The notes: generated from the sequence alone by a model not told the origin. A DNA stretch of 5,564 bases from a virus (IMGVR_UViG_2609460125_000012), one strand, 5' to 3'. Shown: positions 1 to 5,564, counted from the stretch's first letter. Numbers and translations are program-made.

Positions 1-51
1 CTGCATGACAAGGTCATCGGGCATTATCTGAACATAAAACACTATCAGTAA
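1..51 (+). CDS. insB: IS1 transposase InsB, C-terminal end (partial; 5' end outside window)
   Basis: In-frame translation [16 protein letters not shown] with TAA stop at 49-51, 15 bp inside the IS1 terminus. Confidence 0.85.
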   Translation: MHDKVIGHYLNIKHYQ

Positions 52-66
52 GTTGGAGTCATTACC
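1..66 (+). mobile_element. IS1 insertion sequence, right (insB-proximal) terminus; body of element lies upstream of the window
   Basis: Bases 1-51 read in frame as ...[16 protein letters not shown]-stop, which I recognise as the InsB C-terminus, followed by the IS1 terminal inverted repeat gttggagtcattacc ending at 66. Bases 1-66 are the exact reverse complement of 5363-5428. Confidence 0.9.
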
Positions 67-254
67 GAATCGGGCAATGGCCATGCGATACCGGATGCAA
101 GAAATCGCTGAAAAAGCGTATGTATTGTGGAATGACTGAGACCCAGACGCTGAGCGATGGCCCGGATGGTCAGTTTATCTTCAAATCTTAAACGCAGGGC
201 ATCAGGCAAATAAGAACGGAAGCAGGGAATATCTTTTGTTGTCTGGGAATTCAT
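67..254 (-). pseudogene. Transposase-like HTH protein, N-terminal 62 codons only; reading frame runs into IS1 (ORF 45..254)
   Basis: Translation MNSQTTKDIPCFRSYLPDALRLRFEDKLTIRAIAQRLGLSHSTIHTLFQRFLASGIAWPLPD contains a classic helix-turn-helix (TIRAIAQRLGLSHSTIHTLFQR) of the kind seen in IS30/IS21-type transposase N-termini. The frame continues into IS1 sequence and stops at 45, so the gene is interrupted. Confidence 0.4.
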
Positions 255-352
255 CGTTCGTGTCCATCAATATAGATGGGCGCGATTGTTGCCAGACAGG
301 ACAATTTTCACAAGACGTCGCTGATGGGGCGCTTACCGTAATGATGGCGACA
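67..352 (-). mobile_element. Unidentified IS-like element, left end (possibly IS21-family-like), truncated by the IS1 at 66
   Basis: On the minus strand a TG-initiated sequence (tgtcgccatcatt...) starts directly after the holin stop codon. It carries three CCCATC(A/T)-type direct repeats within about 100 bp, then an ATG at 254 opening an HTH-containing ORF. This layout resembles an IS end with transposase binding repeats; family assignment is inference. Confidence 0.35.
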
Positions 353-568
353 TTATTCACCTCTCGCAGCCTTACGCTTGTCTTCTCTGATTTTGAAGTA
401 CAGATTTGTCAGATAAGTCAGGAAGCCCAGAACCAGACTCCCCAGTACACCAATCGCAGCCCACTGTGACGGACTGACCTGATCAAGCCACTGTAAAAAC
501 CAGTAGCCAGCACTGCCTGCGGAGGTGCCGTAGGCAATGCCCGTTGAAATTTTGTCCATGGATTTCAT
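353..568 (-). CDS. Class II holin (pinholin), phage 21 S21 / EssD-EssQ family, 71 aa with dual-start motif MKSM
   Basis: ORF translation [71 protein letters not shown] matches my recollection of the phage 21 S holin (Met1 antiholin and Met4 holin starts, two TMDs, basic C-terminus). A GGAGGTGA Shine-Dalgarno lies 6 nt upstream (minus strand, 571-578). Confidence 0.9.
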
Positions 569-675
569 AGCCTCACCTCCGCAAATAACGGATGGCGTAG
601 TTTTACACTGAGAAATGAAAGGGATTTGAAAAGAAAAAACCGCAAAAGCGGGCGAAACGATATATACAGTAAGGA

Positions 676-854
676 AAGCACTCTATCCAACAAACCACTC
701 ACAGTTAATCGGAATAAAAGCAGAGTGCTTATGAATGATCGCCTGCCCGAAGGTTAGTATTTCTGCACAGCAATTTTGCAAAAAAAAGCGATCATTCATA
801 ACTTAAACGTCTTTCAGTCACTCCGGGATTTCCCATCATCGCAGACTGAAAGAC
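676..854. repeat. Three tandem long-loop inverted repeats (potential stem-loops) in the tRNA-holin spacer
   Basis: Perfect inverted repeats read directly: aagcactct 676-684 with agagtgctt 722-730 (9 bp); atgaatgatcgc 731-742 with gcgatcattcat 788-799 (12 bp); gtctttcagt 809-818 with actgaaagac 845-854 (10 bp). Confidence 0.6.
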
Positions 855-860
855 TCTGAC

Positions 861-935
<75 letters not shown>

Positions 936-938
936 ATA

Positions 939-1014
<76 letters not shown>

Positions 1015-1016
1015 AC

Positions 1017-1093
1017 TGGACCGCCACCGGGGACTCGAACCTCGCACACTCAACTTAAAGGGTTGACGCTCTTTCCTGATGAGCTAGTGGCGG
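1017..1093 (-). tRNA. Atypical tRNA or pseudo-tRNA, anticodon position reads UUU (Lys-like); C33, C1:G72, U73
   Basis: Reverse complement CCGCCACTAGCTCATCAGGAAAGAGCGTCAACCCTTTAAGTTGAGTGTGCGAGGTTCGAGTCCCCGGTGGCGGTCCA has a perfect 7-bp acceptor, perfect D-stem GCTC/GAGC, perfect anticodon stem TCAAC/GTTGA and GGTTCGAGTCC T-arm (one A.C mismatch). The anticodon loop is CCUUUAA, so the near-universal U33 is replaced by C. Confidence 0.5.
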
Positions 1094-1094
1094 T

Positions 1095-1170
1095 TGGTGG
1101 CCCTTGCTGGATTTGAACCAGCGACCTGGCGATTATGAGTCGCTCGCTCTCACCACTGAGCTAAAGGGCC
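1095..1170 (-). tRNA. tRNA with CAU anticodon, most similar to tRNA-Ile2 (lysidine type, ileX-like) rather than elongator Met
   Basis: Reverse complement GGCCCTTTAGCTCAGTGGTGAGAGCGAGCGACTCATAATCGCCAGGTCGCTGGTTCAAATCCAGCAAGGGCCACCA is a canonical cloverleaf with anticodon loop CUCAUAA. It is close to my recollection of E. coli ileX (GGCCCCTTAGCTCAGTGGTTAGAGCAGGCGACTCATAATCGC...). Confidence 0.8.
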
Positions 1171-1274
1171 GGGCGCAGGATAATAACGTTACGAAATCAA
1201 TGTTGCAAGCATTCAAAAATCACCCTTATCTCCTCCACCAGCGCATTCACCATGTCTATCCGAGATAAGTGGCA

Positions 1275-1305
1275 CAAAAAACCCGCTTGTGGGCGGGTTT
1301 TGTTT
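1275..1305 (-). terminator. Rho-independent terminator downstream of the Q-like gene (tR'-like); hairpin is bidirectional
   Basis: Stem acccgc (1281-1286) / gcgggt (1293-1298) with loop ttgtgg. On the minus strand the hairpin is followed by a U5-6 run (plus-strand A-run 1276-1280); on the plus strand it is followed by tttgtttgcttt. Confidence 0.6.
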
Positions 1306-1351
1306 GCTTTGGCCATCACGTACAAAATCGGCAAAGTATCAGATTTGCATG

Positions 1352-1380
1352 AATATATGCCTTTTAATCTACTTTTGCAA
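1352..1380 (-). promoter_or_regulatory. Candidate sigma70 late promoter (pR'-like) overlapping the 3' end of the Q-like gene
   Basis: Minus strand reads TTGCAA (1380..1375), a 17-nt spacer, then TATATT (1357..1352). The predicted start near 1345 lies about 70 nt upstream of the terminator at 1275-1305, the arrangement expected for a Q-dependent pR'/qut/tR' unit. Motif match only. Confidence 0.35.
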
Positions 1381-2059
1381 CACTTTGCTTTGAAAATGCC
1401 GTCTTTTTTTTTGAACGTGTTCTCATTACAAACAATAAAGCCTCACTATCCAGTCGGTGAAAAATGTGTTTCATTGCAACCCAGTGACGAGTAAATGTTT
1501 TGGACCAGTTTTTAGTTGTCACTCCCGCCAGTAATGCCAGCTCCTGGTATTCATAACCTTCCCCACCAAAAAGTTCTGCTTTTACTGCCTGCGCCGCCAG
1601 CCAGATTAATTTTTTCAGGCGTTCCTGCGTTTTCCCTGCAATTTTTCTGGTACCGGATTGAGCATTAAATTCATTCCACGCCCACTGTGTTATCGCGATC
1701 TGATATTCCCAACAAATACTCCCGCTGTAACACCACAACAACCAGGCTTTATAGTGCTCTTCAAGAGACAGAACAGCCCGCCGCCACGATGATGTCGAAA
1801 ACTCAACCGGACTGACCAGAGGAATTGACGTCCCCTTCGCCAGCGATTGCTTTCCCGGGATTGGTGGATTATCCCGCGTTATCATTTTTCCAGTCACTTC
1901 ATCGCGGTACCGGATTTTTTTACGCCTGTAACGCCCTGTATCGAACATGGCATTCTCTTGCCAGGCTTCAAGCTGACCTTTTGTTGCCCCACTCAAATCA
2001 GCGGTGGCGATAATGAGCTGCTCACGCACAAACTGTAAATACTGGTTATTCATGCGCAC
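1364..2059 (-). CDS. Putative late-gene antitermination protein Q-like (231 aa); function assigned mainly by position
   Basis: ORF 1364..2059 lies immediately downstream of rusA (10-nt overlap) and immediately upstream of the promoter/terminator pair, tRNA array and holin, which is the canonical lambdoid Q position. It has a C-terminal HTH-like segment (ELALLAGVTTKNWSKTFTRHW). I could not match it to lambda Q or Q21 from memory. Confidence 0.5.
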   Translation of the reverse strand: MRMNNQYLQFVREQLIIATADLSGATKGQLEAWQENAMFDTGRYRRKKIRYRDEVTGKMITRDNPPIPGKQSLAKGTSIPLVSPVEFSTSSWRRAVLSLEEHYKAWLLWCYSGSICWEYQIAITQWAWNEFNAQSGTRKIAGKTQERLKKLIWLAAQAVKAELFGGEGYEYQELALLAGVTTKNWSKTFTRHWVAMKHIFHRLDSEALLFVMRTRSKKKTAFSKQSVAKVD

Positions 2060-2415
2060 CCCAGTTCTGTGATTTTTATCCCCAGCCGCCCACCAGGAAC
2101 GAGCTGACCGCGCACAATATTGATTTCATCAAACTGCTCGTCGTCTATAAGTAGTCCAGCATGCGTCAGCGCATCCAGCGGTGCCTTCAGGATATTGTCC
2201 AGGTCACGACGGCGCTTATCCGGTGGCTCTGCAATAATCTTTATCGCCAGCCTTCCGGACAGGTTTAATTTCAGTCGCTGCTGGCGAACAATTAGCGCCA
2301 CATCACGGCGATAACGCTCACCGGCTTTTGATACAAAATATGTGCTGCCACGACGTCGCCAGTAGGTGTTCACCGTTGGCGGGTAAGGCAAAACAAATTC
2401 TATGCGTTCGGTCAT
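2050..2415 (-). CDS. rusA: Crossover junction endodeoxyribonuclease RusA (Holliday junction resolvase), 121 aa
   Basis: Translation MTERIEFVLPYPPTVNTYWRRRG...PPDKRRRDLDNILKAPLDALTHAGLLIDDEQ...GGRL shares the RusA hallmark motifs with E. coli RusA as I recall it (LPWPPS.N.YYR..., DRRRRDLDN, DALT.AG...DD.Q). Confidence 0.9.
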   Translation of the reverse strand: MTERIEFVLPYPPTVNTYWRRRGSTYFVSKAGERYRRDVALIVRQQRLKLNLSGRLAIKIIAEPPDKRRRDLDNILKAPLDALTHAGLLIDDEQFDEINIVRGQLVPGGRLGIKITELGCA

Positions 2416-3474
2416 TTATGCTTTCCACTTCAGAACACCCGAATTTCTCGCGTGCATTAAAAAACGAATCAGCAACAACAACTGACTACCGTGTTTTTCT
2501 TCAAAATCTTTTACCCCGGCGTGTAGTTCGTTATGGCATTTACGACACAGCGGAATAACAAACAAATCGTCAGCCTTTGTTCCCATCCCTCCCAGTCCAT
2601 GACCAATGATGTGGTGCGGATCATCTGCCTGATTGCCACACGTCATGCATTTCTGCGTTTTTACCCAGCGCGTGTATACAGGCATCTCTTCCCGTTGTGG
2701 TTTCTGGCGCTGGAGATACTGAGCCGGAGATTCCGGATCAACGGCAATGCTGACCACCGTCTCTTCCTGTGGTGGATTCTGTTGCTGGTGGGCGTGAGGC
2801 AGCGGCGCAAGATTTTTTGTGCGCTGCTTCAGTATGCTGGTGGCGGTCTGCTCTCCCGGCACGATGTCGCTTTCACGGTACATTGAGCGGATTTTTTCCG
2901 CACGCAACCCCAGCGAACGACGTAATACCGCTTCCGGTAGCGCGTCCGCCACCTGATTGCGGACCGCCCACCAGGATAATTCAGCCAGAGATAATTCACG
3001 CTCCTGCGTACCGCTTATTGCGTGACCGATGACGTCAATCATCCATGCTGACAGGTTTTGATGAGCAAGTTGCTCGAGTGATTCGGATGTCTGGTCACGC
3101 AGCTGGTTGTCGCAGTGCCAGCACAATACCATTGCGCCGGTACCATAACGGTGAATGACGGTTTCGCTGTGATGATAATCGCCGTGTGGCCACTGGCAGG
3201 ATTTAATATGGCGCAACAGCCAGTCAGACAATGCGCCAGCACCACCAGCAGCACGAATCACCCGTGCGTTACTGAAAAACGGCAGCAATGTTTTGTCTTC
3301 CACTAGCGGCTGGCGAACGGCAGGAACGACCCCGGACGGCAGATTACGCATGCTTTTCGGTTCCGGCTCCACCAGTACCCGGGTATTGTGGAATACCGGC
3401 ATGGATTCACGACCGGGCTTAAGGACCACCAGCCCGAGTTCCGGAACCAGAACAGGTCGAAGTAATACCCGCAC
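2416..3474 (-). CDS. DUF968-family prophage protein (YdfU-like) with Cys/His-rich HNH-like motifs; GTG start, alternative ATG at 3402
   Basis: 352-aa ORF with two Cys/His clusters: HGDYHHSETVIHRYGTGAMVLCWHCDNQ and CMTCGNQADDPHHIIGHG...PLCRKCHNELH. Size and position (upstream of rusA and Q) match the YdfU-type nin-region protein of lambdoid prophages. GGAGG lies 4 nt before the GTG at 3474. Confidence 0.65.
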   Translation of the reverse strand: MRVLLRPVLVPELGLVVLKPGRESMPVFHNTRVLVEPEPKSMRNLPSGVVPAVRQPLVEDKTLLPFFSNARVIRAAGGAGALSDWLLRHIKSCQWPHGDYHHSETVIHRYGTGAMVLCWHCDNQLRDQTSESLEQLAHQNLSAWMIDVIGHAISGTQERELSLAELSWWAVRNQVADALPEAVLRRSLGLRAEKIRSMYRESDIVPGEQTATSILKQRTKNLAPLPHAHQQQNPPQEETVVSIAVDPESPAQYLQRQKPQREEMPVYTRWVKTQKCMTCGNQADDPHHIIGHGLGGMGTKADDLFVIPLCRKCHNELHAGVKDFEEKHGSQLLLLIRFLMHARNSGVLKWKA

Positions 3475-3475
3475 A

Positions 3476-3754
3476 TTACCTCCAGATCCGTTGCTGGAAT
3501 GTGCAGGACGGACGCGGTGGCCGTTCGGAATAAGGGAGCCTGACGAAGATTATCCAGTGACGATAATCGAGACTGAGGGCTTTCTTAATCTCGTATCCGT
3601 GTCTGCGGTAGCGCTGAATCAGCCATTCAGCCTGTTCTTCGGTGCAGGGGTCGTGCTGATACCCGTCAGATTTGAATGCATGAGAACGCCGCCCGTGCCT
3701 GCTGGCAGGGGCGGCAGAGTTATCCGAATTGTAAAATTTGGTATCGTGCGCCAT
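3476..3754 (-). CDS. Hypothetical small nin-region protein (92 aa from internal ATG; ORF track extends to a GTG at 3883)
   Basis: Open frame MAHDTKFYNSDNSAAPASRHGRRSHAFKSDGYQHDPCTEEQAEWLIQRYRRHGYEIKKALSLDYRHWIIF... The longer GTG-initiated version would overlap the hok terminator hairpin, so the internal ATG is preferred. The Shine-Dalgarno is weak. It sits where Qin-type prophages carry a small gene (rem) between hok and the DUF968 gene; that homology is unverified. Confidence 0.4.
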   Translation of the reverse strand: MAHDTKFYNSDNSAAPASRHGRRSHAFKSDGYQHDPCTEEQAEWLIQRYRRHGYEIKKALSLDYRHWIIFVRLPYSERPPRPSCTFQQRIWR

Positions 3755-3825
3755 CTGTTTTCTCTGCTGGCGCAGCAGGTGCCAGTTGTTCAGGCTGACG
3801 GATGGATTGTAAACCAGAACGACCA

Positions 3826-3853
3826 GAAAAAACAAAACCCGCCGAAGCGGGTT
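3826..3853 (-). terminator. Rho-independent terminator at the 3' end of the hok mRNA
   Basis: Minus strand reads aacccgc-ttcg-gcgggtt (a UUCG tetraloop hairpin) followed by ttgttttttc; plus-strand arms are acccgc 3837-3842 and gcgggt 3847-3852. Confidence 0.7.
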
Positions 3854-3921
3854 AAGTGCGGGTGCGTTGAGGATGCCTGACACATCAGCGGTGGCGAGGG
3901 ATTTCTCCCCCGCCGGGTCTC

Positions 3922-4077
3922 TTACTCCTCAGGTTCGTAAGCTGTGAAGACAGCGACCTCCGTCTGGCCGGTTCGGATTCGTACCTCGCAGAGGTCTTTC
4001 CTCGTTACCAGTGCCGTCACTATGACGGTTAAACAGATGACGATCAGGGCGATTAACATCGCCTTTTGCTGCTTCAT
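3922..4077 (-). CDS. hokD: Hok/Gef-family type I toxin (51 aa), HokD/RelF-like
   Basis: Translation MKQQKAMLIALIVICLTVIVTALVTRKDLCEVRIRTGQTEVAVFTAYEPEE matches my recollection of HokD (RelF). AAGGAG Shine-Dalgarno sits 8 nt upstream (minus strand). The ORF track's 70-aa version starts at an in-frame upstream ATG (4134). Confidence 0.9.
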   Translation of the reverse strand: MKQQKAMLIALIVICLTVIVTALVTRKDLCEVRIRTGQTEVAVFTAYEPEE

Positions 4078-4281
4078 AGCCTGCTTCTCCTTGCCTTTCG
4101 GCACGTAAGAGGCTAACCTACATGTGTTCAGCATGGATTGAGCCTCAGATTAATGTTAAGCGTCTTGCAGGACGCGTAATGTTAACTGGGGCTTTTCTCT
4201 ATCTGCCTTTTGGTGTTCATGCCTGAGACAGATAGCCTCAAGCACCCGCAGTCATTCTACTTAACTAAGATTTCCCTGCAA
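4078..4281 (-). promoter_or_regulatory. hok mRNA leader with candidate promoter, 5' tac-like element and mok-equivalent start
   Basis: Minus-strand -35 TTGCAG (4281..4276), 16-nt spacer, -10 TAGAAT (4259..4254). The predicted 5' end tgcgggtgcttgaggc resembles the plasmid R1 hok mRNA 5' end as I recall it. An upstream ATG at 4134 sits at the position mok occupies in R1. The 5' segment (about 4236-4250) is complementary to the 3' segment cctcaacgcacccgca near 3855-3875. Confidence 0.5.
4126..4195 (+). ncRNA. Candidate Sok-like antisense RNA (coordinates approximate)
   Basis: On the plus strand, TTGCCT (4091-4096), a 17-nt spacer, then TAACCT (4114-4119) form a promoter-like pair antisense to the mok/hok translation initiation region. 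A downstream hairpin gcgtc-ttgcag-gacgc lies at 4160-4175. This matches the position of sok in hok/sok loci. Inferred, not verified. Confidence 0.35.
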
Positions 4282-4336
4282 ACCGTTTTTGTCCGGCACA
4301 GTAAATATCCAACTAAACCAATAGCGTTCGCTGTAT

Positions 4337-4516
4337 TTACCGCCAGTATTCAATGCACATGACCGCCATGAACACCCCTAAAAAAAGGGCATTTATATGT
4401 CCAAACATTAATATCAAAACATCAATTTTTTCCATATACCTTGCTGTGAAGATGATGGGCATACATGATGCGAACAACCAGAACGCAACAAACAAAAACT
4501 GCAATGCGTTTTTCAT
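4337..4516 (-). CDS. Hypothetical small hydrophobic peptide (59 aa, two predicted TM segments) in an AT-rich island
   Basis: Frame MKNALQFLFVAFWLFASCMPIIFTARYMEKIDVLILMFGHINALFLGVFMAVMCIEYWR with AGGGGG Shine-Dalgarno about 6 nt upstream of the ATG at 4516. The surrounding region (about 4340-4700) is markedly AT-rich, so this could also be a chance ORF in a regulatory region. Confidence 0.25.
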   Translation of the reverse strand: MKNALQFLFVAFWLFASCMPIIFTARYMEKIDVLILMFGHINALFLGVFMAVMCIEYWR

Positions 4517-4728
4517 TATTCCCCCTACAATCAATGTGCAATAACATTTAAACACACCTCAATTTGGCCGGACATATAAATATCTAAACCAGAAAAAATC
4601 ACTTACATAGCGTTACAAACTCTTTAGTCTAAATACTCATCGTAAAACATTCCCCATACTTATCAGTCCGTTCCGCGCCAGGTAGCTTATTGCCTTATCT
4701 GGCAACCTATAATCAGGTTTCCGCTTTT

Positions 4729-5151
4729 TCAGTTGGCTGGTCGTTTAACCGACATAGTTAACCCATTAATCTGGTTGCCGGATGCTGGTGGATTTTCGCG
4801 TTTTAATTGTTCATAAAAGTGCACAGCTTTAACCAGTTCTTCTGATGTAACCGGGACTGGTGGGGCAGTGAATAAGGCCTGAATTTCATAGTTCGGCCTG
4901 TCGTTACAATCCTCTTTTTTCGGTACATATTTCCAGTCACCAACCCACAACTCCCCCTGAGAGTCCATAACACCTTTTTTCACGTAGCGATATCGCCACG
5001 CTATCGGCTCTGCTTCCAGCGATGCCCGTGCAATTTTGAATAACTCGCCCTCTACTCGCGCCATCCCTGAATTGGGGTGGCATTTCGTAATCGCTATTTT
5101 TAATTTGGCTTCTTCGATTAATTGTTCTTTTGTTAATTCAGTCATTTTCAT
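4729..5151 (-). CDS. Hypothetical protein, 140 aa, no family recognised
   Basis: Clean 140-codon ORF (MKMTELTKEQLIEEAKLKIAITK...WVGDWKYVPKKEDCNDRP...) with balanced composition and a TTA-rich codon choice suggesting foreign origin. The antisense ORF 5036..5224 is less plausible. Confidence 0.55.
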   Translation of the reverse strand: MKMTELTKEQLIEEAKLKIAITKCHPNSGMARVEGELFKIARASLEAEPIAWRYRYVKKGVMDSQGELWVGDWKYVPKKEDCNDRPNYEIQALFTAPPVPVTSEELVKAVHFYEQLKRENPPASGNQINGLTMSVKRPAN

Positions 5152-5362
5152 TACCGCCCTGGTAATGCTGCCACCAGCGAAAATGGTTAATGGAAAACGG
5201 GCTTCCGTTCTATACCAATCGTAGTGGCAAACCGATTGTCAGCCGGGATCTATTTACCTGCAATAAAACTTTACCACCACGCGAGGTAGAGCCGAATTTT
5301 GGTGCGATCTGATGGGAAGACGAAGGAAAAATCCTGAACACGAAAAATTACCTCCAAATGTA

Positions 5363-5564
5363 GGTAATGACTCCAACTTACTGATAGTGTTTTATGTTCA
5401 GATAATGCCCGATGACCTTGTCATGCAGCTCCACCGATTTTGAGAACGACAGTGACTTCCGTACCAGCCTTGCCAGATGTTGTCTCAGATTCAGATTATG
5501 TCGCTCAATGCGCTGAGTGTAACGCTTGCTGATAACGTGCAGCTTTCCCTTCAGGCGTGATTCA
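5363..5564 (-). mobile_element. IS1 insertion sequence, right terminus, inverted relative to the copy at 1-66; body continues beyond window end
   Basis: ggtaatgactccaacttactgatag... from 5363 is the IS1 terminal inverted repeat. 5363-5428 is the exact reverse complement of 1-66, and the internal sequence continues as IS1-like insB-region sequence to 5564. Confidence 0.9.
5378..5564 (-). CDS. insB: IS1 transposase InsB, C-terminal part (partial; 5' end outside window)
   Basis: Reverse complement of 5378-5428 encodes ...[16 protein letters not shown]-stop, identical to 1-51. The frame stays open to the window edge. Confidence 0.85.

Follow-up and report, generated by a model that had tools for sequence, protein, structure and literature searches.

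A candidate small membrane-protein gene beside hok/sok in a decayed Qin-like lambdoid prophage

The 5,564-nt viral DNA stretch IMGVR_UViG_2609460125_000012 (termed the window here, always at its full length) derives from a Qin-like lambdoid prophage, of which it is the post-replication and late-control part, and reads on the minus strand. Next to its hokD/sok locus lies an AT-rich region with two open reading frames (ORFs) of 59 and 140 codons, which a preliminary description, made from the sequence alone, had presented as an island and as the most plausible place in the window for something undescribed. This region is a patchwork derived from the decay of such a prophage in a Shigella flexneri-type genome, not a single island; what seemed an island with a pair of unknown genes is made up of a deletion junction, an accessory gene in decay, and a single small ORF that may still be live. 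The latter, the 59-codon ORF, is the sole element of the AT-rich segment that looks maintained, and its sequence features lead us to regard it, with moderate confidence, as a genuine small membrane-protein gene. To this extent the earlier expectation stands, as the ORF is a plausible uncharacterised gene of that kind, while the toxin or exclusion pair that it was thought to form with the 140-codon ORF is unsupported.

The 59-codon ATG ORF is nested in a 72-codon ORF that starts with GTG, and a Shine-Dalgarno sequence precedes the ATG at the correct spacing (Table 1). The sole common polymorphism in the Shine-Dalgarno hexamer, g4523a, yields the consensus AGGAGG in 59 of 151 loci. The encoded peptide comprises two hydrophobic stretches, with Kyte-Doolittle means over 19 residues of 2.1-2.15 and a grand average of hydropathy (GRAVY) of 1.2. 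This pattern of two transmembrane (TM) segments is beyond chance: among dinucleotide-shuffled versions of the ORF, 0.16% show it, and the corresponding P value for GRAVY is 0.006. The good Shine-Dalgarno sequence, the two hydrophobic stretches, and the orientation of both ORFs along hok on the minus strand had all been pointed out in the preliminary description and are borne out here.

Integrity of the small ORF was assessed in 120 IMG/VR loci, which were retrieved by an invariant non-coding 34-mer upstream of the ORF and therefore form a sample independent of whether it is intact; 117 of them were usable. The polymorphism counts leave out the locus L092 (see below). The ORF is intact at 59 codons in 115 of the 117 loci, while the adjacent PHROG 660 gene, represented in the window by the 140-codon ORF, is full length in 24 of 113. 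Frame-breaking insertions or deletions (indels) at high frequency number at least 7 in the upstream 504 nt, and the 180-nt ORF has singleton indels only. Common polymorphisms are also less dense in the ORF (6/177 sites, 3.4%) than in the adjacent intergenic stretch (11/120, 9.2%), and the common replacements are conservative (A16V, I31V, M37I, H40Y, A43V, and M53T).

With regard to the surrounding DNA, the AT-rich stretch noted previously is real as a dip in composition, with a guanine-cytosine (GC) content of 0.345-0.375 in 200-nt windows within 4301-4700 against ~0.45-0.58 elsewhere. As an island it does not hold together, since part of it is the dead 3′ end of the 140-aa gene. The conserved AT-rich segment proper extends from 4283 to 4636, and the hok promoter-like site forms its downstream boundary. 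Of 5426 complete E. coli genomes, 1544 carry the stretch 4300-4728 (95-97% identity), and the complete 4135-5160 arrangement occurs in only 19 genomes. The segment is usually followed by hokD, with an insertion sequence (IS) lying between them in some genomes. It is absent from the Qin prophage of strain K-12, so that K-12 Ribo-seq data and small-protein catalogues are uninformative here. Consensus scans, which can miss real signals, revealed no sigma-70-like promoter upstream of the small ORF and no intrinsic terminator on either strand of 3850-5400.

In public databases, both proteins are already catalogued as hypothetical proteins. The exact sequence of the small peptide has been deposited as 'membrane protein [Shigella flexneri]' and as 'putative membrane protein [E. 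coli ATCC 25922]', and the exact 140-aa sequence is likewise public as 'bacteriophage protein'. A literature search with sequence strings of both proteins found nothing. The small peptide has no match in Pfam, PHROG, NCBIfam, or PADLOC (Pfam and PADLOC at E <= 0.1), and its comparison with 5.8 billion proteins, GTDB genomes, IMG/VR, and metagenomes recovered only near-identical copies from Escherichia and Shigella. A '52% identical' match, L092, was considered as a divergent homologue and rejected, because it represents the same locus, taken from an assembly in which every gene is frameshifted. This record (CP178302.1, E. coli ECMA0423, 2300-3600) corresponds to the same locus as the window with the integrase gene uninterrupted; both the 140-aa and the 59-aa ORFs are frameshifted in it, singleton differences are many, and it looks like an error-rich assembly.

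A number of observations weigh against a coding role for the small ORF. Polymorphisms in its frame comprise 1 synonymous and 10-12 non-synonymous changes, which is the lowest synonymous share of the six frames, and all of the common ones are replacements (6/6, 0 synonymous); in the same loci, hok has 13 synonymous and 22 non-synonymous changes. The frame is intact across loci (115/117) with no synonymous excess and, in counts that are small, no codon-level signature of purifying selection. A binomial estimate fits neutrality or weak constraint (P ~0.3) and not strong purifying selection (P ~0.01 at an omega of 0.2). The length of the ORF lies within chance, as a 63-codon ATG ORF is reached in dinucleotide shuffles of 4283-4636 with P 0.12, the value for the longest open frame being 0.26; the 63 codons used in this comparison are those of a plus-strand ORF at 4353-4544, the minus-strand ORF having 59. 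No homologue of the small ORF was found below ~75% identity or outside Escherichia/Shigella, and variants frameshifted in a T run make up ~15% of the distinct database sequences. The RefSeq Prokaryotic Genome Annotation Pipeline (PGAP) left the ORF unannotated in 5 of 5 inspected RefSeq loci with the module. In addition, indels are nearly as scarce in the 120 non-coding nt upstream as in the ORF, which indicates that conservation is not specific to the reading frame, and the sampled loci, being at least 92% identical, are closely related and not independent, so that locus counts overstate the number of independent observations.

Several of these points favour a different explanation, in which the ORF is incidental and untranslated and the AT-rich segment is a non-coding spacer between a dead accessory gene and hok. 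Its uniformity would then result from recent horizontal spread of one hok-linked module or from a cis-acting role, such as RNA structure in the early transcript or an H-NS-bound AT-rich tract that insulates the hok promoter. The nearly exclusive non-synonymous changes, the unexceptional length, the lack of distant homologues, the similar conservation of the 120 intergenic nt, and the absence of PGAP calls are all expected on this explanation. RNA folding points the same way: minus-strand RNA of 4283-4640 has a predicted energy of -100.7 kcal/mol against -83.9 +/- 5.2 in shuffles (z -3.2, 0/100 shuffles as stable) and contains a 23-bp A-U/G-U hairpin at 4576-4640, which starts from the ancestral stop of the gene upstream; on the plus strand, the fold is unremarkable (z -1.0). 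On the other hand, no Rfam family was found in 4283-4640 (a search at E <= 1 returned sok only), and the alleles, which are at least 95% identical, offer no covariation in support of the minus-strand fold. An untranslated spacer also fails to account for a Shine-Dalgarno sequence that its one common polymorphism keeps or improves, for a hydropathy pattern very unlikely to arise from composition alone, for a frame that is intact in 98% of loci beside a decaying neighbour, or for the lower density of common polymorphisms in the ORF than in adjacent non-coding DNA. We regard this explanation as quite possible, though short of probable; if it is right, the segment is ordinary spacer DNA linked to hok/sok.

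For the product of the small ORF, if it is translated, no support for a toxin or exclusion role was found, and sequence, structure, and context assign no function to either protein. One proposal is that it encodes a second type I-like membrane toxin, checked by a plus-strand antisense RNA as hok is by sok. The peptide resembles Hok/Gef proteins in being small, very hydrophobic, and prophage-borne, and its ORF lies 260 nt upstream of hok on the same strand. A plus-strand promoter-like site (TTTCCA-16-GATGAT, 4429-4456) lies inside it, and the 63-codon antisense ORF that overlaps it is annotated ('hornerin') in three phage records. Nevertheless, the promoter match is weak (7.5 on an ad hoc scale, sub-threshold in the scan tool), the plus strand lacks both a terminator and a remarkable fold, and neither HOK_GEF nor any other toxin family was matched. 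Two TM segments are predicted instead of the single one typical of type I toxins, and Rfam and consensus scans detected no antisense RNA gene, terminator, or mok-like coupling. A type I toxin is thus very unlikely. The opposite-strand ORF was also considered as the actual gene and rejected, since it has no family match and shows no coding signature, with 5 synonymous against 10 non-synonymous changes.

Other comparisons are equally partial. Class II (S21-type) holins share with the small peptide a length of about 60-70 residues, two TM helices, and a phage origin; the peptide differs in having no Pfam or PHROG holin match and no charged C-terminal tail, and its ORF lies in the early region upstream of antiterminator Q, outside the lysis cassette. 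Phage 'morons' are AT-rich accessory genes inserted between conserved phage genes with a promoter and a terminator of their own. The segment with the small ORF is similarly AT-rich (GC ~0.35 vs ~0.5 around it) and located between conserved phage genes beside the hok/sok accessory insert, but no promoter or terminator of its own was found in consensus scans. Prophage Pas small RNAs were considered as the identity of the segment and rejected, because they lie between esterase and holin genes and carry terminators. The furthest-reaching version of a functional role, in which the 59-aa hairpin would be a real prophage small membrane protein in about a quarter of E. coli and Shigella genomes, linked to hokD/sok and acting at the inner membrane, for example as a superinfection-exclusion or abortive-infection factor or as a modulator of Hok-type membrane damage upon prophage induction, is unlikely on present evidence.

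The preliminary description had instead proposed that a membrane peptide is paired here with a protein of no recognisable family, as a source of toxin or phage-exclusion functions. A two-gene toxin, abortive-infection, or superinfection-exclusion module would be consistent with two adjacent genes on the same strand beside the membrane toxin locus hok/sok, neither of which encodes a protein of assigned function, and with a remnant of the same gene family upstream in 110 of 113 small-ORF loci. However, the upstream gene is frameshifted or truncated in ~76% of the loci with an intact small ORF, including the window, which implies that the two are not maintained as a pair. Elsewhere, PHROG 660 members are found in phage settings that contain neither the small ORF nor hok, and the complete arrangement is far rarer than the AT-rich module (19 vs 1544 genomes). 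Neither protein matched PADLOC-DB anti-phage defence models (E <= 0.1), and no promoter or terminator marks the pair as a unit. The co-occurrence proposed as a check therefore fails from both sides, PHROG 660 being widespread without the small ORF and the upstream neighbour being usually broken where the two occur together. Without exception, the small ORF comes after the long-C-terminus variant of the PHROG 660 gene, and their linkage is physical and not evidence of joint function. The decay pattern largely refutes the module, which we consider extremely improbable. Neither of the outcomes that the preliminary description had named as reducing the two ORFs to ordinary hypothetical genes was obtained: the 140-aa protein has no housekeeping phage homologue, and conservation of the small ORF extends over the homologous regions.

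Contrary to that description, the 140-aa ORF does belong to a recognisable family. Its residues 1-139 match the profile of PHROG 660, a lambdoid accessory family (E 6.3e-47, 161 bits), and its relatives comprise 568 sequences in a large protein collection and 401 cluster representatives at E <= 0.001. No match was found in Pfam (E <= 0.1), including the Ead/Ea22-like PF13935 and DUF551 (PF04448), or in NCBIfam or PADLOC. The family alignment consists of a variable N-terminus, an invariant core (AWRYRYVKKG...DWKYVP.KEDCNDRPNYEIQ), which is common to hundreds of prophage proteins, and a conserved C-terminal module (…ENPPVETGAWKDAVDWVL…); the longest forms extend to …ISVEDVLR. The family is modular, as core and C-terminal module can each stand alone or be joined to Ead_Ea22 or DUF551 domains in larger proteins. 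PF13935 is carried only by larger mosaic relatives (P0198 and P0245), DUF551 is a separate C-terminal domain in the relatives P0182 and P0232, and some tblastn matches of the ORF fall on genes annotated Ea22 or EaA/EaD.

The window allele departs from this architecture: it lacks the C-terminal helical module (…ENPPVETGAWKDAVDWVLKEAC…; ETGAWKDAVDWVL...), and it ends early with a frameshifted tail. Relative to full-length alleles, 30 codons are missing between two NPP motifs, through a 90-nt in-frame deletion near 4785, and a 4-nt deletion (tggt) between 4740 and 4739 shifts the frame to a stop at 4729. Among the loci, the 90-nt deletion is found in 88 of 116 and the 4-nt deletion in 48 of 116, and PGAP flags sister alleles as 'frameshifted; internal stop'. 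L194 served as an example of a full-length allele for the 3′ remnant. Having lost the most widely shared module of its family, the window allele is probably inactive.

Structure prediction for the 140-aa ORF gave a family context without a function. The AlphaFold2 (AF2) model from a 74-sequence alignment has a mean predicted local distance difference test (pLDDT) score of 80.7, reaching ~96 for residues 50-90, and consists of an N-terminal helical hairpin, a small beta sheet (beta core at residues 51-93), and one helix; the frameshifted tail is disordered (pLDDT below 50 for residues 127-136). A first AF2 model, built from a shallow alignment, was unusable (pLDDT 50). Foldseek matches among viral models are uncharacterised phage proteins and one Ead/Ea22-like protein. 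In the PDB nothing meaningful was matched, and no lambda Ea22 structure was among the matches listed. The homology and structure searches suggested previously have thus supplied a family for the protein, and no function. Lambda Ea22 is a pro-lysogenic protein of the exo-xis region whose C-terminal domain has been solved by NMR (PMC10834534, PMC7093339). It is similar to the 140-aa ORF in being a non-essential lambdoid early-region protein in which a helical or coiled-coil part at the N-terminus precedes a small mixed domain.

Relatives of the PHROG 660 gene are found among clustered small genes of early or accessory type, with Ead_Ea22, DUF4014, and DUF551 genes as neighbours. Other members of 148 and 170 aa, on contigs of ~60-140 kb (L367-L374), lie in tight small-gene arrays with Ead_Ea22, DUF4014, DUF551, and PAPS-reductase genes; the size of most of these contigs, close to 90 kb, is suggestive of a phage-plasmid-like element.

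Read along the minus strand, the region is explained as follows. IS1 has cut the integrase gene, and through a deletion the int/xis end of the prophage is now joined without a gap to the accessory genes of the post-replication region. Foremost among these, the PHROG 660 ORF has lost its C-terminal module and its frame through the two lesions described above and is most likely inactive. Its dead 3′ end leads into the conserved AT-rich segment and, through it, to the hok promoter. This anatomy is observed, as are the distribution, the integrity of the small ORF, its Shine-Dalgarno sequence, and its hydropathy, while its translation, membrane insertion, and any activity are inferred. With neither a promoter nor a terminator to itself, the small ORF would depend on the rightward delayed-early transcript of the phage and be translated there from its consensus Shine-Dalgarno sequence. 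The peptide, made on prophage induction or by read-through, would most likely form a small helical hairpin in the inner membrane and may serve there as a non-essential accessory factor. If so, lambdoid prophages would have a further unstudied small membrane protein among their accessory genes, a common one (1544/5426 genomes) that is unannotated in the inspected RefSeq records. Exclusion and toxin functions are known to arise from small membrane proteins of such a type.

Table 1. Features between the hok promoter-like site and the right-hand end of the window
Feature	Position	Strand	Remarks
hok mRNA promoter-like site, TTTGCA-17-TAGAAT	4282-4254	-	sole sigma-70-like site in 3850-5400; just upstream of the Rfam sok match
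Spacer (54 nt), small ORF stop codon to hok -35 hexamer	4283-4336	-	no terminator-like site
59-codon ORF and stop, MKNALQFLFVAFWLFASCMPIIFTARYMEKIDVLILMFGHINALFLGVFMAVMCIEYWR	4337-4516 (ATG at 4516)	-	predicted two-TM hairpin; candidate small inner-membrane protein
Shine-Dalgarno sequence, AGGGGG	4526-4521	-	4 nt before ATG
Conserved AT-rich intergenic stretch	4517-4636	-	no consensus promoter
Out-of-frame 3′ remnant of the 140-aa gene	4637-4728	-	encodes ...LVSQLKKAQPDCKLPEKAMDYLKRNGLISVEDVLR in full-length alleles; ancestral stop 4637-4639
140-aa ORF, damaged PHROG 660 allele	4729-5151	-	140 codons from 5151; RefSeq 138 aa from ATG at 5145
Deletion junction, int-xis end to post-replication (nin-like) region	5161-5169		homology breakpoints
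DUF4224 (excisionase-like) gene, 3′ two-thirds	5170-5312	+	first ~20 codons deleted
Tyrosine integrase, first 17 codons (MGRRRKNPEHEKLPPNV)	5312-5362	+	cut by IS1 at 5363
End of a copy of presumed IS1	5363-5564		5363-5428 = reverse complement of 1-66

At the right-hand end, the two ORFs had been placed directly inside IS1; in fact, a DUF4224 fragment and 17 integrase codons intervene (5170-5362). The uninterrupted 341-aa integrase of L092 begins with the same 17 residues and matches Pfam Phage_integrase, and 1102 E. coli genomes have an annotated DUF4224 gene that the DUF4224 fragment matches at 100%; for the annotation of both, the gene map of strain 4/4 was consulted. The nin-region context (L001) is matched as far as 5160, and from 5170 onward the homology is to the DUF4224/int context. 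This switch indicates that the whole early region has been deleted and the prophage end joined to accessory genes. The sequence GGTAATGCTGCCA at the junction (5161-5173) resembles what we take to be the IS1 left end (GGTGATGCTGCCA); the resemblance was treated as a coincidence, a relic of an IS1-mediated deletion also being possible. Both ends of the window carry the same terminus, facing inward, of an element that we take to be IS1 from its terminal sequence, and two inverted copies thus bracket the entire prophage remnant in a composite-transposon-like manner.

The gene order on the minus strand is the 140-codon ORF, the 59-codon ORF, hokD/sok, a PHROG 1212 gene, DUF968, RusA, antiterminator Q, four tRNAs, and a class II holin (353-568). 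The nearest matches to the window are E. coli FDAARGOS_944 (99.6% over 337-5160) and Shigella flexneri SFBU1023 (99.9% over 1339-5362). The hok gene was confirmed by Pfam HOK_GEF (E 3e-23) and sok by an Rfam match of 118.9 bits at 4072-4247. The former has 51 codons from an ATG at 4077, and an in-frame upstream extension of 19 codons gives a 70-codon ORF (3922-4134, minus strand), a long form that is annotated 'host killer protein' in some phage records. Just 3′ of the hok stop codon, in the stretch toward the next gene, there is a weak Rfam match on the minus strand (3832-3913; 27 bits, the gathering score being 50, and E 0.0019) to isrK, an Hfq-binding small RNA of Salmonella Gifsy prophages.

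Further downstream, antiterminator Q (1364-2059, minus strand) is intact in the window, with 231 aa and a Pfam E value of 2e-91, and is annotated as frameshifted in the nearest RefSeq genome (L001, 3231-3919). The holin is directly followed by a 69-aa ORF (45-254, minus strand), so that the lysozyme and Rz genes of related prophages are missing here. This ORF is cut by the left IS1 and contains helix-turn-helix domains typical of the N-terminus of transposases (Pfam HTH_23 and others). The four-tRNA array downstream of Q (861-1170, minus strand) consists of Gly-TCC, Thr-TGT, Lys-TTT, and a tRNA with the anticodon CAT, which is assigned to Met by ARAGORN and to tRNA-Ile in the homologous RefSeq gene.

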